Assembly: GCA_964584775.1 (NCBI GenBank)
Contig: CAZPBC010000008.1
Location: forward strand, 1,570 to 65,569
Direction of reading: 5' to 3'
Source: an uncultured bacterium
GTDB taxonomy: Bacteria; Chlamydiota; Chlamydiia; Chlamydiales; SLFE01
Length of the DNA: 64,000 bases
This document shows positions 11,224-36,329 of this stretch, piece after piece; within the stretch, counting starts at the first letter, position 1; each line of letters opens with the position of its first letter. The position numbers and the translations under genes were made by a program. The notes beneath the pieces are model-generated. The model made no database searches. It was not told the origin of the DNA and was given only the letters and a program-made list of their open reading frames with translations.

Positions 11224-11258
11224 AGAGCCAGAAAAAAATAAGAAATAAGGAGAAGACT

Positions 11259-12410
11259 ATGACGAACATACAAGGACCTCCTCCAGATGCAAACCTCCCT
11301 CCTGTTGGAGGAACACCAGGACAGTCAGGACAGACTCCTGGACAGGCGTCTGGTCAAGGTGACCCGGAAGTCCAAGACGGGACAGAGATGATCAAAAAGG
11401 TGTTCAAAGGTGGTGGGAAAGGCACCACAGGAACCGCTCAAGAAGGAGAGACTCCCCTACAGGATATTGATGAATTTGGAAAAATGGCCGGTGAAGCTCT
11501 AGAAGACGCTAGTGATGATCTCCTCGAAAGTTTAGGGCTGAAAGACAAAAAGAAAAAAACAGATCAATCCAGGGCTGCGCGTACACAAGGAAGAATGGCG
11601 ACAACACTCGGACAAAGCCAACAAGGTGAACAAACACAAATGAAAGTCCAAACGAGTGTACAAAATACCGTGGGTGCTAGAGCAAGCCACCCTGTCCTCG
11701 CTCCCCCTGCAACGGGAGAAAAAATTCCAATGGGTGAAGGAGGCATTGGGAACCCATGGCTCCAACCCTCACTCGCGACTGCTCTATTCAGTGCGTGGTT
11801 CGAAGTGCTACCCATATTGATGGGGATTAAAATTGAAGAGGCTAAAGCGGAGGCTGCAGAGATCATCCACGGAGCTGAGCTCTCCAAAGCGAAAGCCGAA
11901 ATGATCATGGAAATTCACGCTCTCGAAGCAGAAAAACTCATGACCCAAGCCGTATCGATGTTCATCCAAGCAGGGCTACAGGTCGCTCAGATGGCTGTCA
12001 CCCTTGCGATGCAGGTGGTCGGTGCAGCGATGAATGCGGTCGGTGGAGCGGTCAACGCTGTAGGAGGCATTGCCTCAGGGGCTACAGGAGGAGCCGTGCC
12101 CTCCATGAAAATGCCTACGATGGGCCCTCAAGAGATGCAAATGATGACGAAGATGATCGACCAGGGATTTGGAGCAGCTACATCGATCGTTCAAGGGGTG
12201 AGTAAAATGATCGAAGCCTCCATTGAAATTGAAAAAGGAAGGGCGGAGTACATCAAATCCTGCCTCGAACACATGCTTCAAACTTCAAATCAAATCCAAC
12301 AAGCACACCGAGAAGCGAAGAAAGAAGCATCAGAACTGATTTCGACCTTCATTCAGGCAATGAACCAGTTCATTCAGTATGAAACCGTCTTCAGAACGGA
12401 CATACGTTAA
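11259..12410 (+). CDS. CopD/SctB-like minor translocator
   Basis: A 383-aa ORF with a Gly/Pro/Gln-rich N-terminus and a central hydrophobic and Ala/Gly-rich segment (QAGLQVAQMAVTLAMQVVGAAMNAVGGAVNAVGGIASGATGG). The C-terminus is helical. It lies directly after the CopB-like gene. Confidence 0.6.
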   Translation: MTNIQGPPPDANLPPVGGTPGQSGQTPGQASGQGDPEVQDGTEMIKKVFKGGGKGTTGTAQEGETPLQDIDEFGKMAGEALEDASDDLLESLGLKDKKKKTDQSRAARTQGRMATTLGQSQQGEQTQMKVQTSVQNTVGARASHPVLAPPATGEKIPMGEGGIGNPWLQPSLATALFSAWFEVLPILMGIKIEEAKAEAAEIIHGAELSKAKAEMIMEIHALEAEKLMTQAVSMFIQAGLQVAQMAVTLAMQVVGAAMNAVGGAVNAVGGIASGATGGAVPSMKMPTMGPQEMQMMTKMIDQGFGAATSIVQGVSKMIEASIEIEKGRAEYIKSCLEHMLQTSNQIQQAHREAKKEASELISTFIQAMNQFIQYETVFRTDIR

Positions 12411-12419
12411 AAGCTTAAT

Positions 12420-12441
12420 TTTTCCCTATCGTTAGGGAAAA
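12420..12441 (+). other. Perfect 9-bp intercistronic hairpin abutting the next RBS
   Basis: The hairpin is TTTTCCCTA-tcgt-TAGGGAAAA and is immediately followed by GGAGG, the RBS for the ATG at 12452. No U-run follows. Confidence 0.35.
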
Positions 12442-12451
12442 GGAGGAACCT

Positions 12452-14890
12452 ATGGATTTAGGTGGTTTAGATATATCCAAGCTGATGGGTCCGGGTGGAG
12501 ATCTCAAAATGGGAGAGACCACTGAACAAACCCAGACAGCTGCAGGTCTTGCCGCGCTTCAAGAAAGCCAGTCACAGGCTGGAGAAGGAGGAGAGCAACA
12601 GATCAACCAAGGATCTCCTAACTTACCCCCTCCCTCCATTGGTCTTTTAAAGGAGTTTTTCTCACAGGAGCTCTCCCTTGAAGAGATCGAAGAGGCGTTG
12701 AAGTTCATCACAGAATCAGAAGAGTTCGAGACCTATGCTAGAAAGAACTTAAACCTGGATAGCAAATCTCCAGCCGAACGCCTCAAGGAGATCATCGACG
12801 AGTACTTCAGCGACGAAGAAGGAGTTCCGGTTGAGGTTCTGTTAAGAAAGGCTCTTGCGAAGATGCTAGAAATGTTACTCAGTGGCAATCCTGACCTCTC
12901 TGCAGATCTTGGGGGTCTCTTCAACCGCGTCCAATCACAAGTGGTGAATAACTCGGTCCCTGAAGGGAAATTTGCGATGGAAGCTATCAAACAGTTCTTT
13001 GCTTCAACCGGCGTTGAGGCAGACGAGCAGATGATTGCGGATGAGTTTCTTGCTGCTTTAAAAACGACCTTTGAGAATGAAGAGAAGGTCTTTTCTCTAG
13101 ACAGTCCCTTCTTGAAGACGGCAGTGGAAGAGGTCACAATGGAGTACCTCATCAAATCTGGCATGTCTGCTGAAGAGGCCGAGAATTTTATCAGCGAACA
13201 ACTCCCCGCTCTCACCATCGGAAGTGAATTCAACAACTGGCTGGGAGGTGTTTCGACTGCTCAGGTACAAGATATCCCACCACCACCACCCGTGGTCAAT
13301 ACAGAGGCGGTGGATGAGTTATCAGCTGAACTCACTGCCCTGCTCGATGCTCCGACACTGGGACCTGGCAAAATCAGTATCCTTGAATTTATGAAGATGG
13401 TCAAAGAGGCGATTCAAGAGCTTGAAGACCTCATCAATGAAATTATCTTGCAGGACTTAGAGCTCCAGAAGAGTCAAAGGCTTTCTCAGCTAGAGGTCAT
13501 CGATGCTGCTGCAGCCCTCTTTATGGGTGGAGAGATCAATCCTGAAGATATTGAGAAGTTCCTTGCTGGAGATGAGAGTCTCGACTCTGCGACAAAGATG
13601 CAGATTGAGATGCTCGCTGAAGAAGGAGAGCTCCAAGAGCTGAGAGATAAAAAAGCAGCCGGTGAAAATATTGAAGGAGCCACTAGAAGCCTAGCTGATA
13701 AGATCAACGAACGGCTAGACAACTACAGCGGATCGGCAGCCTTAGTCCTTCTTGATATCCTAGACGCCTTTGTGAAGATGAAGGAAGCAGAAGCGGCTGA
13801 GAAAAATGAACAGGCAGATGCCGCTGCATCGGATGGGCAAGGAGACATCATTAGTAACTATACTGAAGAGGTGACCAAGATTGTCAATGAGATGCTCCAA
13901 AAGCTCACAGGACTTGTCAACCTTGGAACCATTGAGATGGAGTCTCTCTCTCAGTTTGGTAAAGCGATCGACAAGTTGATGGAGCAGCTTAAGGGAGAAG
14001 ATCAAGCAGGTGGAAAGGACCTCCTCCGCTCCCTGGCTGAGTTAATCAGCGCCAAACTGGGCGGCCCTGGTGGACTAGAGCAAAAAGTGGCCGGTCTCGA
14101 TGTGAGCTCGATGGTTCAAGCCCTTCTTGCTACAGGAAACAAGGGTGTCAACGAGATGAGTGGAGGCACCTCCTCACAGATGATCACCGCCTACCTCGAC
14201 GATGCGGCCATCAATGCCCTCATGATAGCAAGCTTCTTGCAGGGTGCAGGAATGCTAGAGAGTGGCGAAGGAACCACCGAGCTAGGACAGCTTTCTGGAG
14301 TCGCCGTCACCATAGGCCTGGTTGCCTCGCTCCTGGGAGGAGGGGCAAGTGTCAGCGATGTGAAAGATGTGCTGAACTCACTACAAAACATCTCCTCGAG
14401 TGTGGCCTCAACCGGTTTTGCAGGCTTCCTTGGAGGCGCGATCGCAGACAGCCAAGGACTTTCTGAGGGCGACCAAGCCGCACTCACAGGAATATTAAGT
14501 GGAATTCTCTCGAGTGTCGGAAAAACCTCGAACGAAGAGGAGACTGAGGCAACAGGTGAGATCGTAAAACAATTGAGACAACTGTTGAAAGCACTTGAGC
14601 AGGTTCTCCAAAACCTTCTTGCTGGCGTCTCGAATGGATCGATCCCTCTAGAAGGGATCGGTGCGGCGGTCGCAGCCGGAGTTGGAGAGGCCGTAGGAGC
14701 TTTTGTGGGTGGAGTTTCCGGCTCCAGTGGACAAGACCTCGATCAACTCATCCAACAGCTTTCAGGAGCACTGCAGGGGCAGCTGACAACCAACGCAGCC
14801 TCCCCTGAAGCCACACAATTTTTGGTCAATGCCATGCTAGCAGCAGGAATGGGACCTGCTCAGATGGGTGGACCTCAGATGGCTGCATAA
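12452..14890 (+). CDS. Large acidic helical protein of the translocator-associated family, putative T3SS substrate
   Basis: An 812-aa ORF with the RBS AAGGAGG. It carries the ISILEFMKMVKEAIQELEDL motif shared with the neighbouring SctE-like proteins. Only weak Gly/Ala-rich hydrophobic stretches occur near the C-terminus. Confidence 0.6.
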   Translation: MDLGGLDISKLMGPGGDLKMGETTEQTQTAAGLAALQESQSQAGEGGEQQINQGSPNLPPPSIGLLKEFFSQELSLEEIEEALKFITESEEFETYARKNLNLDSKSPAERLKEIIDEYFSDEEGVPVEVLLRKALAKMLEMLLSGNPDLSADLGGLFNRVQSQVVNNSVPEGKFAMEAIKQFFASTGVEADEQMIADEFLAALKTTFENEEKVFSLDSPFLKTAVEEVTMEYLIKSGMSAEEAENFISEQLPALTIGSEFNNWLGGVSTAQVQDIPPPPPVVNTEAVDELSAELTALLDAPTLGPGKISILEFMKMVKEAIQELEDLINEIILQDLELQKSQRLSQLEVIDAAAALFMGGEINPEDIEKFLAGDESLDSATKMQIEMLAEEGELQELRDKKAAGENIEGATRSLADKINERLDNYSGSAALVLLDILDAFVKMKEAEAAEKNEQADAAASDGQGDIISNYTEEVTKIVNEMLQKLTGLVNLGTIEMESLSQFGKAIDKLMEQLKGEDQAGGKDLLRSLAELISAKLGGPGGLEQKVAGLDVSSMVQALLATGNKGVNEMSGGTSSQMITAYLDDAAINALMIASFLQGAGMLESGEGTTELGQLSGVAVTIGLVASLLGGGASVSDVKDVLNSLQNISSSVASTGFAGFLGGAIADSQGLSEGDQAALTGILSGILSSVGKTSNEEETEATGEIVKQLRQLLKALEQVLQNLLAGVSNGSIPLEGIGAAVAAGVGEAVGAFVGGVSGSSGQDLDQLIQQLSGALQGQLTTNAASPEATQFLVNAMLAAGMGPAQMGGPQMAA

Positions 14891-14912
14891 AACACCTCTT
14901 GGAGTCAATGCA

Positions 14913-17726
14913 ATGAACATCAACCCCAACATTTCAGGTTATGGTGTTGAGTATCAACAGGCGCTCAATGAGCTGCAGGAGATCAACCAAGCAACAATAG
15001 AACAACTTTCAAACGATGAGGAGGTCTCTGACGTCTTGTCTACGAGTACAGAGGCCCTTGGTGATCTCGAAATAGACCCACAAAACCCACGCCTCCCTAA
15101 CCCAAACCAAGCTCTTCTATCCAGCGTTCCTACCAACCCTCAACTCATTGATTATTTTATTCAAAACTCTGAGGCGATGAAAGAGCTGATTTTCTCAGTG
15201 AGTTACTATAGTGATTTAGTGAATGCGGGCATCCCTGAAGCCGAAATTGAATCGATGGTCAAGAGTATTTTAGTCAACAACTCCAACTCTCCATATACGC
15301 CCGATGCCCTTGTCAAAAGAGCGATGGGAGAGATCATGCATCAAGAGCTTCAGGCAGAACCGAATGCGGAACTAGAAACGGAATGGTTCAATCTTAGAGC
15401 TGAGCTTTTATCCCAAAATGAGCCGACTGCAAAACTGCTCATCCAACAGTGGACACAGCACTTTATTCAGGAAGGGAACACTCCTGAAAGAGCTGCCGAA
15501 CTGGCTAACAAAGCAGCGGTTCTCTCTGTCGATCAAACCCTTTCCGAAGAAGGAGTGATCACTCCCTTTTACGGGATGCATCCAGCGATTGATGGAGCCG
15601 TTCTTGCAGCGATCAAAACCTCACTCGAAGGAGTCGAAAATGCCCAGTTTAAGGCTGCACTCGCCCAAGATCTAGTGAGTGCAGGAAACATGATAACTAA
15701 TGGGGTCAGCGGGGCGACACAAGTCGAAAACCCCGAACAACTCTCACAGGATGCGATCGATGCGCTGGCTGCTAAAAACGAAGGCCACAAGGAGTACATC
15801 GAAGAACTACTTGTCATGCTTCAACAAGTTCCGATGAACTCACAGGAAAAAGTGGCCATTCTCGAGTTCATGAAGTTTGTTGCGATTGCAATCAATAACA
15901 TGGACGCCGCCATTGCTCAAATGAACATCGACGATACGAGACTGACGAAAAGCGAAGCGCAGATGAAGATTGAAACCGCGGTCGCAAATATGGAGAACAA
16001 AATCAGTGAGATCAAAGAAGCCATGAGAAAGCTGCGTGAAATGCAGGAGAAGGTTGAAAAGATGAAAAACATGTTTGGGGTCTTCTCTGTACTCGCAGAT
16101 GTGATGATGAGTGTCATGATGGCCGTTTTTGGAGTGATTATTGTCGCTGTTGCTCCCCTTCTTGCAGCAACAGTCACGGTGCTTGTCAGCTACGTGATTG
16201 GTGCCCAGGTTTTTCTCGCAGCCCTTGGGATACTTGGTATGATCATCGGGACGATCATCGCGATCATCTTATTCGCAACTGGAGCAGGAATTCCTTTAGC
16301 TATTGTGGTCGAAGTCATTGTGATCGTTGTTTTAGCTGTTATTACTATAGTTGCTGAGATACTCGTCATGATTGTCACTGCTATTATAGGAGTGATCGCG
16401 TTGATACTGGGAGCCATACTGCTCATGGCTCTCTTAGTCTTGGCTCTGCTCGCCGTGAGTAAGGCACTCACAGAACACACCAATGTCACAGAAGATCTTG
16501 CGGATTCTTTTGGGCCAGCCCTACTCAATCTCCTCGATCAAGTTGGAATTGATGTCGATCTAGATACTTGTTACTGGATCTGTGCCATTGCACCCATTGT
16601 GATTGTGGCGGTGATCTTGGTCGCCGTCCCTCTCATATTAATTCTTGCGATCGTTCTCGTCCCCATCATTGCTGTGATTGGTACTCCTCTGATGCTCAGT
16701 ATCCCCGTCGTCTTTCTTGCTGCTCTGGCCGTCGCTTGGATTGCACTTTTAGCGTTTGTGGTTGTCGCCTCTCTCCTTCCTTCTTTCGTGGCCATTTTTG
16801 CTTTCGCTGCGGCACTCCTAGTCGCCATTGTGCTGCTTCTTGTTGCTGTCTTATTTTGGATCGCAGCCCTCATTGTCGCACTCCTTCCTGTCATTTTAGT
16901 AGTCCTTTTAGCCATCATTTTGGCAGCAGCGGGGCTCATTGCCGCTACGCTTCTCCCAGCAATCATCATGACGATGCTGCAGTGGATTCCGATGTTCCTC
17001 AAAAAAGCAGGAGCCTACAAGTCAATCGCTGAAGGACTTGGTGAAGCAATGGGACTCTCTGAAGAAGATATCGAAGGACTTGAATTGGCACTCACGGGAA
17101 TGGGAGCCATGGCCACCGCCTCCTCAGGACAACAGGTGAATGAAAATGTCATGAGCGGTCCCAGTGCTGAAGAGCAAGAAGAGATGGACGCGATGGGAAC
17201 CGAATATGGTATGGAGACCGAAATGGAAGGTCTTGAAGCGACCATTGATCGAATTTCAAAATATATCGGGATGCTCAACGGCCCGAACATCACGGAGGAG
17301 TATCGAGAAGAGTATGAGAAGAAAAGCATCGGCTCCCAGGCTGCCCAAATTGAAGAGCTGATGAAAGTCATGAAGCAGGTGAAAATTCAGCTTCAAAAAG
17401 TCCTCGATGCGATGACCAAAGGAGGCACAGGAGAAGGGATGGATCTAGGAAGTGCTCAACAGGAGCTCTCCACCTTCATCCAGACTTCACTGACTTCGGC
17501 ATTGCCGAGCCTTAAAAAAATCCTCCCAGAAGACCTAGCGAATATGGCCACACCTGAGAACACTGGAGGAGCAGGAGGAGATATCATCGGATCCCTACAA
17601 TCACTTGCTGTGCAGTCCATGCCTGATGCGGACCGCATGCGCGAAAATGCGCAAAGGGATCTCGATCGTTACTTGGCAGAGGAAGAAGAGGAAAAGTATG
17701 AAACGGCCAATGTGTTTATGAGTTAA
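14913..17726 (+). CDS. Giant SctE/CopB-like paralogue A with a ~300-aa hydrophobic core
   Basis: The ATG at 14913 has GGAG 8 nt upstream. It has a VAILEFMKFVAIAINNMD motif plus a coiled coil. An almost uninterrupted I/V/L/A-rich region follows, from about residue 390 to 690, with one polar loop. The C-terminus is acidic. It is collinear with 17747-20557. Confidence 0.8.
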   Translation: MNINPNISGYGVEYQQALNELQEINQATIEQLSNDEEVSDVLSTSTEALGDLEIDPQNPRLPNPNQALLSSVPTNPQLIDYFIQNSEAMKELIFSVSYYSDLVNAGIPEAEIESMVKSILVNNSNSPYTPDALVKRAMGEIMHQELQAEPNAELETEWFNLRAELLSQNEPTAKLLIQQWTQHFIQEGNTPERAAELANKAAVLSVDQTLSEEGVITPFYGMHPAIDGAVLAAIKTSLEGVENAQFKAALAQDLVSAGNMITNGVSGATQVENPEQLSQDAIDALAAKNEGHKEYIEELLVMLQQVPMNSQEKVAILEFMKFVAIAINNMDAAIAQMNIDDTRLTKSEAQMKIETAVANMENKISEIKEAMRKLREMQEKVEKMKNMFGVFSVLADVMMSVMMAVFGVIIVAVAPLLAATVTVLVSYVIGAQVFLAALGILGMIIGTIIAIILFATGAGIPLAIVVEVIVIVVLAVITIVAEILVMIVTAIIGVIALILGAILLMALLVLALLAVSKALTEHTNVTEDLADSFGPALLNLLDQVGIDVDLDTCYWICAIAPIVIVAVILVAVPLILILAIVLVPIIAVIGTPLMLSIPVVFLAALAVAWIALLAFVVVASLLPSFVAIFAFAAALLVAIVLLLVAVLFWIAALIVALLPVILVVLLAIILAAAGLIAATLLPAIIMTMLQWIPMFLKKAGAYKSIAEGLGEAMGLSEEDIEGLELALTGMGAMATASSGQQVNENVMSGPSAEEQEEMDAMGTEYGMETEMEGLEATIDRISKYIGMLNGPNITEEYREEYEKKSIGSQAAQIEELMKVMKQVKIQLQKVLDAMTKGGTGEGMDLGSAQQELSTFIQTSLTSALPSLKKILPEDLANMATPENTGGAGGDIIGSLQSLAVQSMPDADRMRENAQRDLDRYLAEEEEEKYETANVFMS

Positions 17727-27788: not shown

Positions 27789-28694
27789 ATGGAAACAACA
27801 GACGTCCCCTACTCCTGGCTCAAAGCCGTGGACCCTAAAGTTGCAGAAGTCGACACGGTACCCCTTTTTGGAAAGGCACCCACCTTTCCGTGGGAAGAGT
27901 TCTCTTCCATTCTTGGGGACGCCCTCCAGATCCAAGAGTTAAAAATCGAACCGAGCAAAGTCCTCTGGCGTAGCGAAGAAGAACTCCTCTCGGGTTTTGG
28001 GGATGATGCACACATTCAAGAGGTCACCTTACCGGACCTTGAAGAGAGCTGCTTCCTCCTGCTTGCGGGTAGTGACTGGACCAAGATCGCTTCCTGGCTC
28101 ATCCAAGAGATTCCTCCTGTCTCTCTCGATCAGTTTGATCCTGAGGTCGTCCAAGCCTTAAAGACCTTCGTCTTTACGACGGTCCTACTCAAGTTTGGCG
28201 AAATCAGCTTTGACCCCACTCTCGCCCTCCATTTAAACAAAGAGTCGAACCTCCGCATGGAGCCCGCTCTCAGTGTGGATATTCTTGTGACAACCAACGG
28301 CACCCCCCTCACCGCCCGCCTCCTCCTCTCTAGCCGTTTCCTGGAGGGGTGGAAAAAACGCTTTGAAAACCAAAAAATGGAGATCCCTGTACAGACCGAA
28401 CTTTTAAAAAAGCTCTCTGTTGTCCTCCACCTCGAAATGGCGAAAGAGCTCCTCTCCAAAGATGAACTCGATTCTCTCCAGGTAGGTGACATCCTCCTCC
28501 TCAAAGACCTCACAGTCGATCCGAGCACCTACTCCGGAACAATTCAGATGACTTACAATGGCATTCCACGCTTCAAAGGAACCCTGAGCGATGGGGTTCT
28601 CAATGTGAACGAGTGTGTGTCCGCTTTTGAACAGCTGACCCCTCTACAAAAACCCGCCCAACCCTCTTCAGGAGAGCAAGAGACCGATGGATGA
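27789..28694 (+). CDS. sctQ: Cytoplasmic sorting-platform protein SctQ, N-terminal gene (ends with a SpoA-like domain)
   Basis: It holds the position after sctP. The C-terminal segment LSVVLHLEMAKELLSKDELDSLQVGDILLLKDL...GTIQMTYNGIPRFKGTLSDGVLNV fits the SpoA/FliN pattern. The stop overlaps the next start (ATGGATGA). Confidence 0.75.
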   Translation: METTDVPYSWLKAVDPKVAEVDTVPLFGKAPTFPWEEFSSILGDALQIQELKIEPSKVLWRSEEELLSGFGDDAHIQEVTLPDLEESCFLLLAGSDWTKIASWLIQEIPPVSLDQFDPEVVQALKTFVFTTVLLKFGEISFDPTLALHLNKESNLRMEPALSVDILVTTNGTPLTARLLLSSRFLEGWKKRFENQKMEIPVQTELLKKLSVVLHLEMAKELLSKDELDSLQVGDILLLKDLTVDPSTYSGTIQMTYNGIPRFKGTLSDGVLNVNECVSAFEQLTPLQKPAQPSSGEQETDG

Positions 28695-29193
28695 GACACC
28701 TGCAGACGACGAAAAAAAAGAACTCCAGCCCGAGTTTGACTTTGAAGAGTATGATGCTGAAGTAGAAGTGGAGGAAGAGGCCGGCGAAGTGCAGGAGGTT
28801 AAACTTCCCACCATTGAAGGCCTTGACGAGATTGAAGATGACATTCCTGAGATGCCCGACATCCCTGAGGGATCCACGATCTCTCCCGCAGCAGCTGCAG
28901 CAGCTGAGGAGGCTGAGTCTGTGGAAGCTCCGGCAGAGGAAACAGCAACAGGAGCAGCTCCTCTCGATGCTCCAGCCACACCAGGAGAGCTACAAGTCAC
29001 TCTCGTTGTCGAAGCTGGACGCGTCCATGTCCCTCTAGACCAGCTCCTTCAGATGAGCGAAGGAAACACTTTAGACTTGGATGTCCACCCCGAAAAGGGT
29101 GTTGACCTAGTCGTAGACGGACAGTGTGTTGGTCGAGGCGAGCTCGTCAAAATCGGTGACCACCTGGGAGTCCGGATCCTAGATATGGGCTAA
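28687..29193 (+). CDS. SctQ-C-like protein (acidic linker plus SpoA/FliN domain) encoded as a separate overlapping ORF
   Basis: The C-terminus LQVTLVVEAGRVHVPLDQLLQMSEGNTLDLDVHPEKGVDLVVDGQCVGRGELVKIGDHLGVRILD is a clear FliN/SpoA motif. The start overlaps the upstream stop by 8 nt. Confidence 0.75.
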   Translation: MDETPADDEKKELQPEFDFEEYDAEVEVEEEAGEVQEVKLPTIEGLDEIEDDIPEMPDIPEGSTISPAAAAAAEEAESVEAPAEETATGAAPLDAPATPGELQVTLVVEAGRVHVPLDQLLQMSEGNTLDLDVHPEKGVDLVVDGQCVGRGELVKIGDHLGVRILDMG

Positions 29194-29199
29194 TCCAAT

Positions 29200-30042
29200 A
29201 TGGCCGACGAAGACTTTCACACCCGAGCAACACAGCCAGGCGGCTTCGATAAATCCCCCACCAGCGCCCCATCTGATCACCCAAAAGAGATCGCAGGCTT
29301 TGAGATCCTAGAGCATTTAGACACTGGAGGGATGAGCCATATCTACCGCGCAAAACACCCTCAAATCGAGGAAGAAATTGTTGTTAAAGTCCTTGCCACG
29401 CGGTTTTTGAAAAATGATGAGGTGGTGGGGCGTTTTCTGAAAGAAGCGAGCATCATCGCCCTTGCAGACCACCCCAACATTGTCAAACTCTACCGTTGGG
29501 GCCAATGGGAAGGAGGCCTCTACATCGCCATGGAAGCGATCGAAGGAACCTCGCTCCACTCGCTGATCGAAAGCGGCCAGATCCGCTATCCTCAATGCTT
29601 AAAGCTGGTTCTTGAAACAGCCTATGCGCTTTGCCATCTACATACCCACTCTATCATCCACCGTGACCTAAAACTGGAAAATATCCTCGTGACGAAAGAA
29701 GGCCAAGTCAAAGTGATTGATTTTGGAGTTTCTCAACTTCTAAGAGAGCAAAAAGCCTCTTCGAAGAGAGGAAAGCAAATTATTGGAACCCCCATCTACA
29801 TGAGCCCGGAGCAGTACGAAACCCCCGACCTCGTCTCCTACCCCTCCGACATCTACTCTCTTGGGATCGTCGCCTACGAAATGATCACTGGAAAAGTGCT
29901 CAAAGGACCCTTAGACCTCCATCAAGTTCCAGAAGCCTTACGCCCTATTCTCTCACGCTGCTTGAAGCGCCTTCCCGAAGAGCGTTACCAAGATGTTGTC
30001 GACTTCATTGCGGACCTTTCTGAAGTTGTAAACCAACTTTAA
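29200..30042 (+). CDS. pkn5: Ser/Thr protein kinase Pkn5-like (T3SS-cluster kinase)
   Basis: Hanks motifs are present: VVKVL (Lys), HRDLKLENILV, VIDFGVS, GTPIYMSPEQ and DIYSLGIVAYEM. It has the same position as CT673, between cdsQ and cdsC. Confidence 0.85.
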   Translation: MADEDFHTRATQPGGFDKSPTSAPSDHPKEIAGFEILEHLDTGGMSHIYRAKHPQIEEEIVVKVLATRFLKNDEVVGRFLKEASIIALADHPNIVKLYRWGQWEGGLYIAMEAIEGTSLHSLIESGQIRYPQCLKLVLETAYALCHLHTHSIIHRDLKLENILVTKEGQVKVIDFGVSQLLREQKASSKRGKQIIGTPIYMSPEQYETPDLVSYPSDIYSLGIVAYEMITGKVLKGPLDLHQVPEALRPILSRCLKRLPEERYQDVVDFIADLSEVVNQL

Positions 30043-30143: not shown

Positions 30144-33100
30144 ATGATCCGAAGACCGACACTCTCGAGACTAGGCCTCTACAGCACCATCACGCTCATT
30201 GGAGTGAGTATCCTTGCCCTCTCCTCGCAGAGTTTCGCTATCCCCCCCAAACCTGGGTTCAATTCCAGACTCAATGAGGTTGCCGATACCCCCAATCTCC
30301 CCGAGGAAAATCTCAAAGCCTGGGAGAAACAACTTCATGACGAAGCTGAGGAGAACATCCAAAGCCTCGACAGCGATCTAGAACCCCTAGATGAGGAAGA
30401 TTTAGAGGATGAAGACCCGCAAATGCTCCTCCCTGAAGATGAGGATCTTGAACCTGAGATCGACGATGATGTTTTTAGTACGCCTGACCTTCAAAAGACG
30501 CCCGCCTTCATCGCCTGGACAAAAAGAGACCTCTCAGCCCAAGAACTAGACCTCAATGAACGCACTCTCACTCATATCCAGCTAAAGGAAAAAGCGGCAG
30601 CCCTCACTCAAGAGGTCTACACACTTCGAAGTCAACCTGCACGCGGTCATGCTGAGCAGCGTGGCCAGGCTTCACAGGCAGCCATCGCACGAAAAAGAGA
30701 GGCGTCCCTTCCCTTCCAACCTTCTCAACTCGATAAAGAGCTCCTCACCCACCTGCTTGAGGGTGCTGAGGCTAAAAAAATAGAAAAGTGGACCTCCTCT
30801 GAAAATATGATTGTCGGCCTTCCCGCAGCAGGAGAGGAAATCGCAACACTTGACCTCCCCCTACCCGCCGAAGATCCGAACCCAGAGCTCGACACGCTTG
30901 AAACCGAGCCTGTTCCTGAGAGAGCCGCTCCCATCCCACTTGAAGGCAGCGACCCCAACCTACTTCCCTCTATCCAGGGAGATGAGACGATCGAAGAGGA
31001 TCCCCCTCTTCTCGCTTTCCATGAACCAACAGATGAGCAGGACTCCTCCCTCCTTTCACAAAGGGTGAGCCCCGACGCTCCTGGATCCCCCAAATATAAC
31101 TTCTACAGCGGTGAAAGCCAAACTCAAGGCGCTTTTGACGACGACAACAGCGATGAAGAGAAAGACCAAGAGACCTTCATCCCTACCCGTCAACCCAGAC
31201 AGCAAACCGTTCCCGCTCCTACTGAGCAACCGGTTCAATACACTCCTGAACCTGAGCCACAGCCCATCCAACTCGACTACGAGTACATCAAAGAGCGTGG
31301 CGGAAAAGGAAGCATCATCCTTCCCACAGAAGCTGAGTTCAAAGAAGAGGTTCAACAAAAGGGAGACCCCCTCAACCTCTTCCCTCCTGAAAGAGAACAG
31401 CCCGCACCTGAACCTGAAGAGCCCGCCGATGTTCCCCTCCTCCCTGAAGGAGGTTTTCAGCAGCCTCAAGCCGCTGAGAAGGCCACAAAGGAGCAGTCCC
31501 AAGAGGATCAGTCCCCAGAAGAGCAGCCCGCTAAAGAGGAATCAGCAAGGAAGCAAAAATGGGAGAAAAAGACCCCCTCACAACCTGCCACAGGTGTCAC
31601 AAGCCCCCTTCCCCAAACAGAAAAAGCCACCACACCTGGCACCGCTTCTGACGCCACACCTGCAGACGCGCAGTCAGACTCTGGGAAAGCGACACCGACC
31701 AAGGCTCCATCCCCCTCATCAGGCGGTCAGAGTGGAGAAACTCCGGTGAGTGAAGAGGCGCGAAAAGAAGAAGCTGAAGAGGGAGAAGCACCGACCTACT
31801 TTGTGAAGTTCAACAATGTCACGATGTCCGAGTACATCCGCTATGTGAGTATGTTCACAGGGAAAAACTTTATCTTTGACCCCGAAGATCTCGACTTCAA
31901 AGTCACCATCGTCTCGAATGAGCCAACCACAGTTCAAAACATCATGGCCGCCACCTTGCAGATGCTACGCATCCGCGGTCTCTCGATGTCGGAGATGGGA
32001 AACAACATCATCATCTTTAGAGAAGTGGGAATCAATAGCCCAGCCACCGTCGTCGGTAGCGGAAAAGAGCCCCCTAAAGACACCGATATCATCACTCAAG
32101 TTTACAGCCTCACGAACGCAGACCCTGCAACGCTCGCTAACATCATCCGCCCGATGCTTTCAGAAAGTGCGATCGTCGAAGCCGTTCCTCAAAGCCGCCA
32201 CCTGATTGTCACAGGCTTGACTGCCAACGTGAACCGCATCACGAAACTGATTGAGAATATCGACTCCCCTGAAACAAGCCTCGAAGTCGGTGAGTACACC
32301 GCCCGTGCCATCACGATTTCTCAAGCCATTGAAGTTGCCGAAGAGCTCCTGCTTCCCATTGTAGGTGACCGCCCCTTTGTCATTACATCGCTTCCGGCGA
32401 AAAACACCGCTTACGTCGTTTCCACTCCGATCATCGTCGCACAAGCTCTCGCTCTCCTGAAGCAGATCGATGTCGGAACGGACATTCCAGATCTCGAGAA
32501 CTTAACCGAAGAAGAGCGCCGCCGCCGAGAACAGGAACGTCTAGAGAGCCTCGAGAGAAGTCAAAGACTCGATCAGGCGAGTGGAAAATGGAAACCAGAG
32601 AGCGTCCTTGGTACGGTTCGTGGAACAAAATTCTACCTTCATAAGCTCCAGTACCGCAAAGGGGACCAGATCCAACAAGCCCTCCAAGCGGTGGCTCAAA
32701 GCCTTCAACAAGTCCAAATTGAAGAGGAAGAGGTCGATCTGATCGCAACGATCAACAGTGTCCAGTGGATCGAATCGTCGAACTCTCTCGTCTTTACAGG
32801 AACTCCTGGAACCCTTCAGCTCGTGAAAGAGCTTGTCGATGAAATCGACACGGCCCTCCCTCAGGTTCTCATTGAAGTGTTGATCCTTGAAGCCACCCTC
32901 GATGACACACTCACCTTTGGTGTCGACTGGGGAACCCGCTTTGGAGGTCCTGACGCTGCCGGAGCACAAGCCTTCCTCGCGACAAACTCTCCTCTAAACC
33001 AGGCCCTCGACTCTACCGTCCCCACCAACTTCGGACCAGACGCTTCTGGGCTCGCTAGAGCAGCAGGATTCAACCTCGGTGTCATTGGACGAACTGTCAC

Positions 33101-33884
33101 CAAGAGCGGATGTAACTTCGGCTCTGTCGCAGCCCTTGTTTCAGCATTGAACGCAGAAAGCCGCATCGACATCCTCCTGAACCCTAAAATCGTTGTCGAA
33201 GATAACGCGACAGCAGAGTTCTTCGTAGGAATTAACACCGCCTTCCAGACCCAGTCGATTGCCAACGATTTTGGTACCACGATCTCTAGTAACTTCGAGT
33301 TTAAAGACGTCGGTAGTACGATCAAAGTCACCCCTCTCGTGGGCAACAACGGCATCATCACCCTGGACATCGAGCAAGAGGTGAGCTCTGCTGCCGGAGG
33401 AACCTTCCCCACAGGCGGGGGAGGAACGACTGTCACCACAGGGGGTGGAGGTGGACAATCCGACACAGCAACGGGTGGGTCGAGCACCACAGGCGCTCAG
33501 AGTATTGGACCAACCACACGAAAAAGCACCACCAAAACACGCATCCATATGCCTGATGGGTACTTCCTAATCATGAGTGGTCAGATCCGGGATGAAAGGG
33601 AAGAGATCCGTAACCAAGTTCCCTGCTTAGGTGGTATCCCCTTCCTCGGAGGCTTCTTCTCGCAGAAAAGAACACGTATCGATAAGAAAAACCTCATGCT
33701 CTTCATCCGACCTCAGATCGTTGATGTAGAACGCATCAACCCGATCACCAAGCGTCAACAAGATATTTGGAAACATAGAAAACGCCACAAAAAACGTTGG
33801 CAGTTTGAAGTCGATGAAGCACTGGACTTCTTTAACATCCGTGAACCTTATGGCAAGTCTGAAGAGAGACCGCTTAGAAACTAA
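30144..33884 (+). CDS. sctC: T3SS outer-membrane secretin SctC (CdsC) with a very long acidic/proline-rich N-terminal extension
   Basis: It has a signal-like N-terminus and about 540 aa of low-complexity E/D/P/Q-rich sequence. Secretin N-domains follow, then the C-terminal secretin core (VLIEVLILEATLDD...FGVDWG...LLNPKIVVEDNATAEFFVG...VPCLGGIPFLGGFFS). Confidence 0.9.
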   Translation: MIRRPTLSRLGLYSTITLIGVSILALSSQSFAIPPKPGFNSRLNEVADTPNLPEENLKAWEKQLHDEAEENIQSLDSDLEPLDEEDLEDEDPQMLLPEDEDLEPEIDDDVFSTPDLQKTPAFIAWTKRDLSAQELDLNERTLTHIQLKEKAAALTQEVYTLRSQPARGHAEQRGQASQAAIARKREASLPFQPSQLDKELLTHLLEGAEAKKIEKWTSSENMIVGLPAAGEEIATLDLPLPAEDPNPELDTLETEPVPERAAPIPLEGSDPNLLPSIQGDETIEEDPPLLAFHEPTDEQDSSLLSQRVSPDAPGSPKYNFYSGESQTQGAFDDDNSDEEKDQETFIPTRQPRQQTVPAPTEQPVQYTPEPEPQPIQLDYEYIKERGGKGSIILPTEAEFKEEVQQKGDPLNLFPPEREQPAPEPEEPADVPLLPEGGFQQPQAAEKATKEQSQEDQSPEEQPAKEESARKQKWEKKTPSQPATGVTSPLPQTEKATTPGTASDATPADAQSDSGKATPTKAPSPSSGGQSGETPVSEEARKEEAEEGEAPTYFVKFNNVTMSEYIRYVSMFTGKNFIFDPEDLDFKVTIVSNEPTTVQNIMAATLQMLRIRGLSMSEMGNNIIIFREVGINSPATVVGSGKEPPKDTDIITQVYSLTNADPATLANIIRPMLSESAIVEAVPQSRHLIVTGLTANVNRITKLIENIDSPETSLEVGEYTARAITISQAIEVAEELLLPIVGDRPFVITSLPAKNTAYVVSTPIIVAQALALLKQIDVGTDIPDLENLTEEERRRREQERLESLERSQRLDQASGKWKPESVLGTVRGTKFYLHKLQYRKGDQIQQALQAVAQSLQQVQIEEEEVDLIATINSVQWIESSNSLVFTGTPGTLQLVKELVDEIDTALPQVLIEVLILEATLDDTLTFGVDWGTRFGGPDAAGAQAFLATNSPLNQALDSTVPTNFGPDASGLARAAGFNLGVIGRTVTKSGCNFGSVAALVSALNAESRIDILLNPKIVVEDNATAEFFVGINTAFQTQSIANDFGTTISSNFEFKDVGSTIKVTPLVGNNGIITLDIEQEVSSAAGGTFPTGGGGTTVTTGGGGGQSDTATGGSSTTGAQSIGPTTRKSTTKTRIHMPDGYFLIMSGQIRDEREEIRNQVPCLGGIPFLGGFFSQKRTRIDKKNLMLFIRPQIVDVERINPITKRQQDIWKHRKRHKKRWQFEVDEALDFFNIREPYGKSEERPLRN

Positions 33885-34800
33885 GCTCCTCGTTTCGATC
33901 CTTCTTCTCACTTTTTTGACGGGCTGTCATCCGCGCACCTACGTGTTGGACCCCAACCTCTGCTATACGCCTACAACCTGCGACATCGCAGAAAGGAGCT
34001 CTCCGTTCCCTCCGTTAGAAAAAGAGGAGTTGAAAGAAGAGTGGGGTAAGGAGCTTCTCATCGGGGAAAAATTTGGTGAAGAACTGGACCTCTACCGCTC
34101 GATTACTGCCCTGAAAAGAGCTCTTTTTCTCATCCCTGAAGACGAGAGTGAAAGGCGCACTCAAATAGAGTATGACATCCTCACCGCCTACTTCTTTGCA
34201 GAAAAATACAGCGACGTCATCCGCAGTTTTGACGAATCTAATCTCAAAAATCTTTCCAAAGACTCCCCCCTCTTCAACGACCTCCTCGTGATGCTCGTCC
34301 TCTCCTACGAAAAGATCTGCGACCCTTATAAGGCGAAAGTCGTCTTAGATATCCTCCGCGAGTCGGCCCCGGAACGTGCAGAGAAACTCCAACTCTCTAA
34401 AGCTATCCAAGAGGGAGACCTACCGACCCTCCAAGCCATGAACCGGCCCAGCTGGGTTGACTGCTACTGCCAAGAACGCCTCTCCGTTCGAAAAGCGCAA
34501 ATCTACAACGCCCTTTTTCCAGGAGCAGGCTACTACTATGTTGGACAAAAGAAGACAGCCCTCACCTCTTTCGTGCTAAACGCCCTTTTCCTCACCGCCA
34601 CAGCCCAATTTTTCAAGCAGGGATACATCTCTGCCGGAATCATTACCGCCAGCCTGGAGTTTGGTTGGTACGTCGGAGGGATCAACGGCGCAGGCCTTGC
34701 TGCAAAATTCCACAACGATCACACTTACAGTCAATATGCGCGTGAGTCCATGATCGAAGACCAACTTTTTCCCACCCTCATGATCCAACATGCGTTTTAA
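33850..34800 (+). CDS. Lipoprotein with a TPR-like helical domain and a C-terminal Gly/aromatic membrane hairpin, coupled to sctC
   Basis: The signal peptide plus lipobox reads KLLVSILLLTFLTGC. The middle is helical-repeat-like. The C-terminus is ALFPGAGYYYVGQKKTALTSFVLNALFLTATAQFF...GIITASLEFGWYVGGINGAGL. It overlaps the sctC end by 35 nt. The start is uncertain (alternative at 33805). Confidence 0.6.
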   Translation: MASLKRDRLETKLLVSILLLTFLTGCHPRTYVLDPNLCYTPTTCDIAERSSPFPPLEKEELKEEWGKELLIGEKFGEELDLYRSITALKRALFLIPEDESERRTQIEYDILTAYFFAEKYSDVIRSFDESNLKNLSKDSPLFNDLLVMLVLSYEKICDPYKAKVVLDILRESAPERAEKLQLSKAIQEGDLPTLQAMNRPSWVDCYCQERLSVRKAQIYNALFPGAGYYYVGQKKTALTSFVLNALFLTATAQFFKQGYISAGIITASLEFGWYVGGINGAGLAAKFHNDHTYSQYARESMIEDQLFPTLMIQHAF

Positions 34801-35188
34801 CACTATCTTCTTATTCCTCATCCCCTCCCTCCTCGTCTCTGTACCTTATAATCCGACCGAGAGAAAAGCCTGGGGCCCTTGGGGAAAAGACGCTTCGCTT
34901 AGCAAACAGAAAACCTCTACACCGAAGCAGGAATCCAACCTCCTGATCACCGCCGCTTCAAAAGTCATCCAGCTGCGGCAAGAGGTCCTCACACACGCTG
35001 ATGGCCCAAGGAGCCACTACTTCCCCTCCAGCTCACAGTATGCACTCGATGCACTGCATAAATATGGATTTTTCTGGGGCTACCTGCTCGCCTGCGACCG
35101 CCTCATGAGAGAAAATGATGACGAATGGGTCTATGCTACCACCGACATCGACCCGCTCCACATCCTTAAATATGACCCGGTACAGTAG
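34790..35188 (+). CDS. YidD-family (haemolytic domain/DUF37-like) protein lacking the conserved cysteines
   Basis: GPRSHYFPSSSQYALDALHKYGFFWGYLLACDRLMREN aligns with E. coli YidD [38 protein letters not shown], with both Cys replaced by Ser. An N-terminal signal/TM segment is present. It overlaps the upstream gene by 11 nt. Confidence 0.6.
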   Translation: MRFNTIFLFLIPSLLVSVPYNPTERKAWGPWGKDASLSKQKTSTPKQESNLLITAASKVIQLRQEVLTHADGPRSHYFPSSSQYALDALHKYGFFWGYLLACDRLMRENDDEWVYATTDIDPLHILKYDPVQ

Positions 35189-36329
35189 AGGTCGTCGATA
35201 GGGGATAGAGAATCCCCACGGCGTGGTTTTTGAAGACTCCTGTGCGGATCACAGCGAGTCGGCACTGAAGGGTTTTCTCACCCTCATTTTTGGATGCAAA
35301 AGAGAGAAGCAACTCCGCCTCTTGCGTTTGACCCAGACGGTTCAGCGTCTCTTGCCAGACCTCTTGACCTCCACGCATCAGATCTTTGAAATCGTGGATG
35401 AAGTTCTCAGGTCCCCATCCTAAAAACTCTTTCGTCTGGTCATTGGCAAAAACCAAATGCCCTTCACGAAGAGAGTAAACAAAGACAATGCAAGAACTCT
35501 CACTGCGGAAGGCGTCGTAAAGACGGCGGCGGTTGAGTGCAGAGTTGTCCATTCCCATTTGAAATCGAGCGTCTTCAGCAAAGTAACTCGATGTGAGCTT
35601 CTGCGCAATGTTGAGGCAGCGTTGTAGCTGCTTGCTACCTTCGCGTTCTCTCTCCACCACAGGTGAAGGGGCGCGAAGGAACTCTTCTTGAGTTGGAGGC
35701 ATCGGCATGTCCGATTCGGTTTCTGTCACCTTGAGAAGGGTGTTGAGATCATACGTCAAATCATCAATCGATGACTCCAAGTTGTGGATCTCTTTTTGCT
35801 TATCATCCATGGTGGCGCGAAGGCCATTCACCGTCTCTGTGTATTCCTTAAGGAGGCGCTCTCTCTTTTCAGAGTGTTCTTGATACTCTGCAATCACCCT
35901 TAAGTGCTCTTCTTTGAAGTTCGCAAACTGTGACTGGAGCTCTTCATATTCTGCTTTTTGACGGTACCAAGCCTCTTTCACCTCTTCAAGCTCTTCAACA
36001 AGCGCCTCTTCTTGACCCCGCAAACTTTCAAGCTCACTTTGCATCGCTTGGACATCTTCTCTCTCCTCAGAAAGGGGTTCAACGGCTTTCGATGCGCTGA
36101 CCTCTGCACTAGGAGCTGTAGTCCCCTCTTTGAAGCGGAGAAAAGAAAAAATCAGGGCGACGGAGCCAAGTGACGCTAAAAGAAAAGAGAGTCCAAAGAC
36201 CCACTTGGCGCTATCGGTGGGCATCTGAGAAACAGTAAAGAGCACAAGCGCCACAGCCGGCAAAAAATAGCAGGCCAGAACCACAAGAAAAAAACGGTGA
36301 TTCTTGTTATTCAATTTCTCGCTCATCAC
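35166..36329 (-). CDS. Inc-like membrane protein: N-terminal bilobed hydrophobic domain, coiled coil, C-terminal PAS-like domain
   Basis: Two TM segments are separated by a short loop (FFLVVLACYFLPAVALVLFTV-SQMPTDSAK-WVFGLSFLLASLGSVALIFSFL). The middle is E/Q/L-rich coiled coil. The C-terminus is PAS-like (IVFVYSLREGHLVFANDQTKEFLGWGPENFIHDFKDLM...). Confidence 0.6.
   Translation of the reverse strand: MMSEKLNNKNHRFFLVVLACYFLPAVALVLFTVSQMPTDSAKWVFGLSFLLASLGSVALIFSFLRFKEGTTAPSAEVSASKAVEPLSEEREDVQAMQSELESLRGQEEALVEELEEVKEAWYRQKAEYEELQSQFANFKEEHLRVIAEYQEHSEKRERLLKEYTETVNGLRATMDDKQKEIHNLESSIDDLTYDLNTLLKVTETESDMPMPPTQEEFLRAPSPVVEREREGSKQLQRCLNIAQKLTSSYFAEDARFQMGMDNSALNRRRLYDAFRSESSCIVFVYSLREGHLVFANDQTKEFLGWGPENFIHDFKDLMRGGQEVWQETLNRLGQTQEAELLLSFASKNEGEKTLQCRLAVIRTGVFKNHAVGILYPLSTTSTVPGHI

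Follow-up and report, generated by a model that had tools for sequence, protein, structure and literature searches.

How the chlamydial secretin CdsC/SctC, which is unusually large and resembles the secretins of the type II secretion system (T2SS), reaches the outer membrane and assembles there is the question raised by the locus described here. The locus lies in a stretch of 64,000 nucleotides (nt) from an uncultured bacterium of the Chlamydiota (GTDB lineage Chlamydiia; Chlamydiales; SLFE01; assembly GCA_964584775.1, contig CAZPBC010000008.1, positions 1,570 to 65,569 of the forward strand). This stretch is called the window, and coordinates refer to its first letter. A first-pass annotation of the window had pointed out a tetratricopeptide repeat (TPR)-like lipoprotein gene and a YidD-like gene next to sctC and suggested that they form a pilotin/assembly module. 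It had also remarked that no pilotin is known for the chlamydial type III secretion system (T3SS). This agrees with Nans et al. 2015, who state that neither a pilotin nor a further outer-membrane protein is encoded in the T3SS operons of C. trachomatis (PMC4682100). No description of a TPR lipoprotein or a YidD-like gene linked to chlamydial sctC was found in the searchable literature. The lipoprotein belongs to an undescribed family and is termed TprH for convenience. A function of TprH and the YidD-like protein that is tied to the secretin, with all variants of this idea taken together, is moderately probable.

Gene order at the sctC locus

Three open reading frames (ORFs) on the + strand are co-directional and overlap. 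The secretin gene sctC/cdsC (30144..33884, 1246 amino acids (aa)) shares 35 nt (33850..33884) with the TprH gene (33850..34800, ATG start, 316 aa), which in turn shares 11 nt (34790..34800) with the gene of the YidD-like protein (34790..35188, 132 aa). These coordinates match the arrangement given by the first-pass annotation. The 35-nt overlap suggests translational coupling of sctC and tprH, as judged from the sequence. The 11-nt overlap of tprH and the YidD-like gene is identical in the loci L076, L082, L083, L085, L087 and L089. No sigma-70-like promoter is seen in 33300-35700. Like the stop/start overlaps this fits co-transcription with sctC, although the missing promoter is weak evidence.

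The arrangement is maintained in the chlamydial lineages examined outside Chlamydia. When one genome was scanned for each GTDB species, 157 genomes proved to have a TprH relative, and the best 80 of these 157 loci, all of which belong to environmental Chlamydiota, were taken for analysis. With the loci from an exact-protein look-up they make up 82 non-redundant loci, which were analysed by tblastn and ORF extension. All 81 loci that could be assessed have sctC upstream of tprH on the same strand. The distance between the two genes is at most 300 nt in 76 loci and the median projected gap is -15 nt, i.e. the genes usually overlap. A YidD-like gene follows sctC-tprH in 74 of 77 assessable loci (5 loci are not assessable) and is positioned directly 3' of tprH in 68. 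Linkage to sctC in other genomes had been set beforehand as the result on which the proposed module would stand or fall. It is decisively present, in all assessable loci and also in the deeply branching clade described below. The genes downstream of the trio, on the other hand, change between lineages.

The lipoprotein TprH

A search of a collection of 5.8 billion proteins found 611 homologues of TprH at E<=1e-3, and a profile search gave 185 matches at E<=1e-30 among 1.84 billion cluster representatives. Among the matches listed, the members with a taxon name are Chlamydiota (Waddliaceae, Parachlamydiaceae, Simkaniaceae, Neptunochlamydia and unclassified metagenome-assembled genomes (MAGs)). 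A few TprH-bearing MAG records are labelled Verrucomicrobia (e.g. P0469), yet they carry chlamydial T3SS genes; most likely, these records are mislabelled. Neither Pfam nor NCBIfam has a model that matches TprH of the window at E<=1. The family appears to span the Chlamydiota sampled and to be covered by no curated model. The hundreds of conserved homologues rule out that the ORFs of TprH and the YidD-like protein are chance readings.

The N-terminus of TprH, MASLKRDRLETKLLVSILLLTFLTGC, includes a signal peptide and a lipobox, LLTFLTG-C26 (33850..33927, + strand). Its sequence MASLKRDRLETKLLVSILLLTFLTG-C26 looks like a textbook lipoprotein signal, with predicted lipidation at Cys26. The lipobox, already noted by the first-pass annotation, is found in 241 of 250 assessable family members and Cys26 is invariant in an alignment of 31 sequences. 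An Asp at position +2 is not present after the lipobox Cys of TprH members.

The signal is followed by a divergent TPR-like helical-repeat domain (residues ~58-222; 34021..34515, + strand). In the AlphaFold2 model calculated from the 31-sequence alignment, TprH is all-helical (predicted local distance difference test (pLDDT) 89.6, predicted template modeling score (pTM) 0.75). Helical pairs span residues 58-222 with pLDDT >90, and a long hairpin of the helices 234-256 and 260-303 follows. The TPR character put forward in the first-pass annotation is weak by sequence. It is nevertheless supported by a profile match of TprH to consensus-TPR proteins among the PDB sequences (E 3.4e-5), by TPR_1/TPR_2 Pfam matches in 14 of the 31 homologues (best E 2.3e-5), by the predicted fold and by Foldseek, which returns generic TPR matches (best E 0.012, BamD 0.058, NlpI complex 0.12, none <=1e-3). 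An identity with BamD was considered and rejected: there is no NCBIfam match, and E. coli BamD is merely one of the generic TPR matches (0.058 in Foldseek, 0.79 in the PDB profile search).

Besides Cys26, the positions that are invariant in the 31-sequence alignment comprise scattered sites of the TPR core and a C-terminal block, S212...N220..PGAGYxYxGQ...T239....N244...S268.E270.GWYxGGIxGxGL...N289...P308...F316.

The C-terminal hairpin of TprH

Most of this block falls into the invariant C-terminal helical hairpin (residues ~223-303; 34516..34758, + strand), which is the best-conserved part of TprH in the main clade and in the deep clade alike. The hairpin consists of the entry motif PGAGYYYVGQKK, helix 1 with Asn244, a turn of 3-4 residues and helix 2 with Ser268, Glu270 and GWYVGGINGAGL. 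Helix 1 has a mean Kyte-Doolittle hydropathy of 1.43 and a Wimley-White octanol value of -7.5 kcal. For helix 2, which contains the invariant Glu, the Kyte-Doolittle values range from 0.96 (the family mean) to 1.20. This hydrophobic two-helix hairpin argues for a putative membrane anchor in addition to the lipid.

The entry motif, K/R-A-x-x-L-x-x-x-L-PG-x-G-x-x-Y, aligns with positions 3-25 of the profile of DUF5683 (PF18935), a family of membrane proteins of the Bacteroidota. The match covers 23 residues and is sub-threshold, with E values of 0.0035-0.16. Of the 31 main-clade TprH proteins 3 show it, and of the 4 deep-clade proteins 2. In the two deep-clade proteins it scores 12-15 bits, compared to a gathering cut-off of 26.7. 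Membership of TprH in DUF5683 or TM2 was rejected because the match is sub-threshold and confined to this short motif.

The polypeptide ends with a tail of the form LFPxLMxxxxF (34759..34797, + strand). Its terminal Phe316 is invariant in the 31-sequence alignment, and Phe is the last residue in 297 of 316 members. This C-terminus recalls the beta-signals of outer-membrane proteins or PDZ-binding C-termini; AlphaFold2 predicts a short helix plus coil.

The YidD-like protein

The product of the third gene matches PF01809 with 36.1 bits (cut-off 27) and the NCBIfam YidD equivalog TIGR00278 with 45.7 bits (cut-off 40). A database search gave 752 homologues. The YidD core comprises residues 55-113 (34952..35128, + strand; DGPRSHYFPSSSQY...LACDRLMRENDDEWVY). 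As claimed by the first-pass annotation, an alignment with E. coli YidD demonstrates that the family signature is retained, in the form ISPxxGPxxxFxPxxSxYxxxA.

Several features distinguish the protein from canonical YidD. At 132 aa it exceeds the ~70-90 aa of YidD, and in all members ~45 residues are added at the N-terminus, which consist of a basic N-terminal (n-) region, a hydrophobic (h-) region of 12-15 residues and PWGKDA(D)L. In the window, hydropathy and the homologue alignment place a signal segment at residues 1-24 and the PWGKDA motif at residues 30-35 (34790..34894, + strand). A basic n-region precedes an h-region of 13 residues, and a 19-residue segment has a Kyte-Doolittle value of 1.55 and a Wimley-White octanol value of -9.8 kcal. 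PWGKD is present in 118 of 121 homologues, and a strong h-region directly before it in 104 of 111 assessable proteins, which bears out the signal/transmembrane segment that had been noted for the window protein. Ala is the most frequent residue two positions before the Pro of PWGKD, so that the junction reads A|[DEN]PWGKDADL. Given the signal-peptide-like N-terminus and the acidic start of the mature protein, the most plausible fate of the main-clade protein is export, with a probable location in the periplasm. Canonical YidD lacks a signal peptide and works on the cytoplasmic side of the inner membrane.

The cysteines are also remodelled. The first and second canonical Cys are replaced by Ser (DGPRSHYFPSSSQY), and Ser/Ser is found in 110 of 110 main-clade homologues. 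The third (RCxP) is lost as well; RENDDxWVY is found instead, and 10-15 inserted residues precede K.DPVP. A cysteine that canonical YidD does not have, C102 in GCDRLMRE, is kept in all 108 homologues with a readable motif. The description of the protein as a YidD without cysteines thus holds for the two positions it referred to but not for the whole chain.

The gene context differs, too. The YidD-like gene is situated after sctC-tprH, whereas canonical yidD lies between rnpA and yidC, and neither rnpA nor yidC occurs in the flanks. Sequence and structure searches found no relative of the YidD-like protein among PDB sequences or folds, and its AlphaFold2 model is of moderate confidence (pLDDT 73). 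As far as its sequence can tell, the protein is clearly a new variant of the YidD family, putatively exported, with remodelled cysteines and with an intermediate clade.

The secretin and its C-terminal tail

SctC of the window is identified by the Pfam matches Secretin (1.7e-33), Secretin_N (1.8e-22) and GspD N0 (4.4e-10). Its top NCBIfam match is a GspD-type secretin. An acidic, Pro-rich low-complexity N-terminal extension of ~540 aa is followed by N0, Secretin_N and the secretin domain (residues 1001-1194). The length of this extension is hugely variable among the loci. In the window it occupies 30144-31790 (residues 1 to ~550), and total SctC lengths reach 2758 aa in L005 (1-8053) and fall to ~780 aa in the deep clade (L087, 5668-8001).

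Residues 1195-1246 form an S-domain-like C-terminal tail (33726..33881, + strand), a candidate docking site for an accessory protein. In an alignment of 78 tails, the 45-60 residues after the secretin domain are conserved and display the pattern T..QQ........W.YE.DEALD..N after an IFIRPQI motif. In other secretins, the pilotin-binding S-domain sits at this position. The tail of SctC could act likewise as an S-domain or docking site. Many SctC tails, though not that of the window, have a Cys-rich end, for example CCEFKY, CDCNY or CECN (e.g. L023, L033, L036, L037 and L041).

A deeply branching clade

The TprH proteins P0383, P0384, P0380 and P0372 are the weakest profile matches, with mutual identities of 29-36%. 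They represent a deep clade, the loci of which are L087, L089, L090 and L091. In these four loci the order is still sctQ(-pkn5)-sctC-TprH-YidD and the genes overlap or abut. The hairpin with the invariant Asn, Glu and GWYxGG is present in both clades, as is the N-terminal hydrophobic segment of the YidD protein. Other characters differ. TprH has a lipobox and a C-terminal Phe in the main clade, whereas the deep-clade proteins have an ordinary signal peptide without lipobox and lack the Phe. The YidD protein has lost all three canonical cysteines in the main clade, whereas all three are kept in the deep clade (DCKFHPSCS...TRCN). The PF01809 score is 64-70 bits in the deep clade compared to 36 bits in the window, and the PWGKD motif of the main clade is absent. 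SctC has 1246 aa in the window and ~780 aa in the deep clade, where the long acidic N-terminal extension is missing.

These character states indicate that the sctC-TprH-YidD trio is ancestral in the Chlamydiota sampled and that the sctC-linked YidD-like gene is derived from a canonical yidD. Lipidation, the C-terminal Phe, PWGKD and the loss of cysteines are derived states that travel together. Because the deep clade maintains the hairpin, the linkage to sctC and the YidD partner without a lipobox, the conserved core of TprH is the TPR domain with the hairpin and not the lipid anchor.

Neighbouring and inserted genes

Upstream of sctC the window contains sctQ (28687-29193) and the gene of a Pkn5-like kinase (29200-30042); sctN is located further upstream. 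With 280 aa the kinase is approximately a kinase domain alone, and its orthologues in L004, L089 and L090 have 430-532 aa. Downstream, a convergent UPF0242/PAS_12 gene (35166..36329, - strand) shares 23 nt with the 3' end of the YidD-like gene, and the sctC operon ends there. This gene codes for a coiled-coil protein of the CT616 family and, unlike the trio, is kept as a neighbour only among the closest relatives. A second YidD or a paralogue of either TprH or the YidD-like gene was not found in the 64-kb window.

In six lineages, lineage-specific ORFs of 208-698 aa separate tprH from the YidD-like gene (L024 7078-8418, L060 7112-8410, L079 6969-9065, L032 7026-8606, L059 6816-7442 and 7723-8400). 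They could be effectors or further accessory proteins. In L005, the place of the YidD-like gene directly 3' of tprH is taken by a Rhs/YD-repeat protein of 1839 aa (9440-14959) and an IS66 transposase (15902-17005). L075, a Parachlamydiaceae MAG (11025-12720), is without the YidD-like gene and has rpsB-tsf ~4 kb downstream of tprH. In C. trachomatis, tsf (CT679) and rpsB (CT680) presumably follow a few genes beyond cdsC.

The sctC locus of the Chlamydiaceae

The locus tags of C. trachomatis are consecutive: CTL0041/CT672 is sctQ, CTL0043/CT674 cdsC, CTL0044/CT675 mcsB and CTL0045/CT676 mcsA (PMC12422730, PMC11708050). Hence there is no gene between cdsC and mcsB. In the window genome, mcsB is found ~9 kb downstream of sctC. 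None of the matches listed in the protein, genome and representative searches carries the name of a Chlamydiaceae; as these lists run to 80-150 entries at most, this does not prove absence from the family. The supplements of chlamydial pangenome papers do not mention YidD or COG0759.

Discussion

The explanation we favour is that the TprH and YidD-like genes are the conserved 3' end of the chlamydial sctC operon and that their products are a two-protein envelope module which is dedicated to the secretin and has a pilotin-like role without belonging to any known pilotin family. Our confidence in this specific form falls a little short of even. Localisation, topology, binding partners and function of both proteins are inferred from their sequences and the model. 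TprH would be exported, lipidated at Cys26 in most lineages and held in the membrane by its C-terminal hairpin. This membrane would most likely be the inner one, with a double anchor as in SctJ, and the TPR domain would face the periplasm. The YidD-like protein would be exported by means of its own signal peptide. The TPR domain may capture newly exported SctC at or near the translocon, probably by the C-terminal tail, and in this way keep it from premature multimerisation or mis-assembly at the inner membrane. The remodelled YidD domain may then assist the membrane insertion or hand-off of SctC. Canonical members of the YidD family are membrane-active insertion helpers.

A function tied to the secretin is suggested because the stop/start-overlapping gene order is kept over deep divergence, because two independent export signals are present and because TprH contains a protein-binding repeat domain. 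Rate covariation gives a further hint, which is weak evidence. In a mirror-tree analysis of the 27 loci that hold all five proteins, with partial correlations controlling for the others, the largest value is that of the C-terminal half of SctC and the YidD-like protein (partial r 0.48, partial-Mantel p 0.001). SctC and TprH have a partial r of 0.23 (p 0.02), TprH and the YidD-like protein one of 0.15.

Several observations weigh against this explanation. Partial Mantel tests are anticonservative for related sequences, and TprH covaries with SctQ (partial r 0.36) as much as with SctC. Chlamydial genomes are highly syntenic overall, and the upstream genes sctQ and pkn5 are conserved as well; adjacency alone therefore overstates the functional coupling. 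The YidD-like gene is displaced by 1.5-6 kb downstream in 6 lineages, behind lineage-specific inserted ORFs, and is missing from at least 0.9 kb of flank in 3 loci (L005, L017, L075). The hairpin is only moderately hydrophobic and contains an invariant Asn and Glu, and a true transmembrane topology is thus not certain. Finally, the secretin of C. trachomatis assembles without TprH and YidD-like genes at the position next to cdsC.

Does TprH resemble a pilotin? The first-pass annotation had likened it to the PilF/PilW/Tgl proteins, which share with it the N-terminal lipobox, an all-helical periplasmic domain of the TPR type and, presumably, the role at a secretin. This comparison is not supported, since sequence and fold are similar only as far as generic TPR proteins are. 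There are zero NCBIfam or Pfam matches at E<=1 and no pilotin is found among the 50 Foldseek or 24 PDB sequence matches listed. PilF/PilW/Tgl proteins have no C-terminal helical hairpin, whereas that of TprH is invariant; some TprH members, furthermore, are not lipoproteins, and TprH is paired with a YidD-like protein. MxiM/YscW/ExsB and InvH are also lipoproteins encoded in a T3SS locus beside or near the secretin gene. However, they are small (~12-17 kDa) and non-TPR, and all-helical TprH has no sequence or structural match to them.

TprH may still be a classical pilotin, i.e. a Lol-trafficked outer-membrane lipoprotein which binds the S-domain of SctC and pilots the secretin to the outer membrane, and the hairpin of which is soluble or inserted peripherally into the membrane. 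The widespread lipobox without Asp at +2, the TPR fold, the close linkage to sctC and the conserved SctC tail would all suit such a protein. So would the marginal hydrophobicity of hairpin helix 2 and the invariant C-terminal Phe, which with its alternating hydrophobic pattern recalls signals of proteins destined for the outer membrane. The hydrophobic hairpin, the most conserved element of TprH, would, however, hinder the release to LolA, and the deep clade combines sctC linkage, hairpin and YidD partner with an ordinary signal peptide. Moreover, with 316 aa TprH is far above the size of T3SS pilotins, and it resembles no pilotin at the level of the family or in specific structure. A classical pilotin is thus quite unlikely. 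A membrane-anchored accessory protein is favoured over a Lol-dependent pilotin because the hairpin is best conserved, the deep clade is not lipidated and the double-anchor architecture is like that of SctJ. SctJ (EscJ/PrgK/CdsJ), an inner-membrane part of the injectisome, combines an N-terminal lipid anchor with a C-terminal membrane helix. YfgM is a periplasmic TPR-like protein that is anchored in the inner membrane and takes over proteins as they are exported at the Sec translocon. Both are architectural analogues and not homologues of TprH; SctJ has a single C-terminal helix and a ring-building domain, whereas TprH has a two-helix hairpin and no such domain. What remains of the proposed pilotin/assembly module is its linkage to sctC and the conserved tail of SctC. 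The pilotin half of the proposal is weakened by the hairpin, the non-lipidated deep clade, the missing similarity to pilotins and the adjacent cdsC and mcsB of C. trachomatis.

The same architecture would also suit a structural or peptidoglycan-related part of the injectisome. TprH, alone or together with the YidD-like protein, would then be a periplasmic collar or tether from the inner membrane to the secretin, needed with a peptidoglycan sacculus or a longer SctC and dispensable in Chlamydiaceae. The N-terminal lipid and C-terminal membrane anchor match those of the ring lipoprotein SctJ, the Gly-zipper-like motifs of the hairpin suit oligomerisation, TprH covaries with both SctQ and SctC, and the pair is not found beside cdsC in C. 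trachomatis. Yet Pfam, NCBIfam and Foldseek found no peptidoglycan-binding or ring-building domain. The deep clade with its short SctC has the pair too, so that the pair is independent of the N-terminal extension. Such a structural role is improbable. The main rival dispenses with the secretin altogether. Here the two genes would be housekeeping envelope genes that ride in the sctC operon, namely the ordinary, N-terminally anchored yidD of the lineage and a TprH of general membrane biogenesis or quality control, which might be a hairpin substrate that depends on YidC/YidD or an accessory of the translocon like YfgM. NCBIfam names the YidD-like protein as the YidD equivalog, and the three cysteines and high PF01809 scores of the deep-clade copies indicate descent from canonical yidD. 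No second YidD occurs in the window, and gene order is conserved among chlamydiae in general. In some loci the YidD-like gene is displaced or missing although tprH is still in its place, and C. trachomatis is without the pair beside cdsC. On the other hand, the stop/start overlaps of the trio survive very deep divergence while the genes downstream are replaced, and the usual rnpA-yidD-yidC context is absent. Export probably takes the main-clade YidD-like protein away from the membrane face at which canonical YidD works, the cytoplasmic one, and the strongest residual rate covariation of this protein is that with SctC. We consider the housekeeping role unlikely, though less so than either a classical pilotin or a structural part.

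Compared to the dedicated envelope module favoured above, a more far-reaching version is rather doubtful. According to this version, the exported, remodelled YidD-family protein and the hairpin-anchored TPR (lipo)protein would be an unrecognised secretin-assembly system that serves the chlamydial injectisome as its pilotin in function. This system would be ancestral to the Chlamydiota and missing next to sctC in Chlamydiaceae, and would include the first protein with a YidD fold on the periplasmic side.

The locus offers two candidate genes, apparently coupled translationally to sctC in practically all environmental chlamydial lineages sampled, for the question of how the secretin comes to be assembled. 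A member of the YidD family with a signal peptide and without the three hallmark cysteines, together with an intermediate clade that keeps them, is a natural experiment on the YidD fold. Since C. trachomatis is without the pair beside cdsC, the biogenesis of envelope and injectisome would seem to differ between the pathogenic Chlamydiaceae and their environmental relatives. If the role at the secretin is true, the pair would be the missing assembly factor of the chlamydial injectisome.

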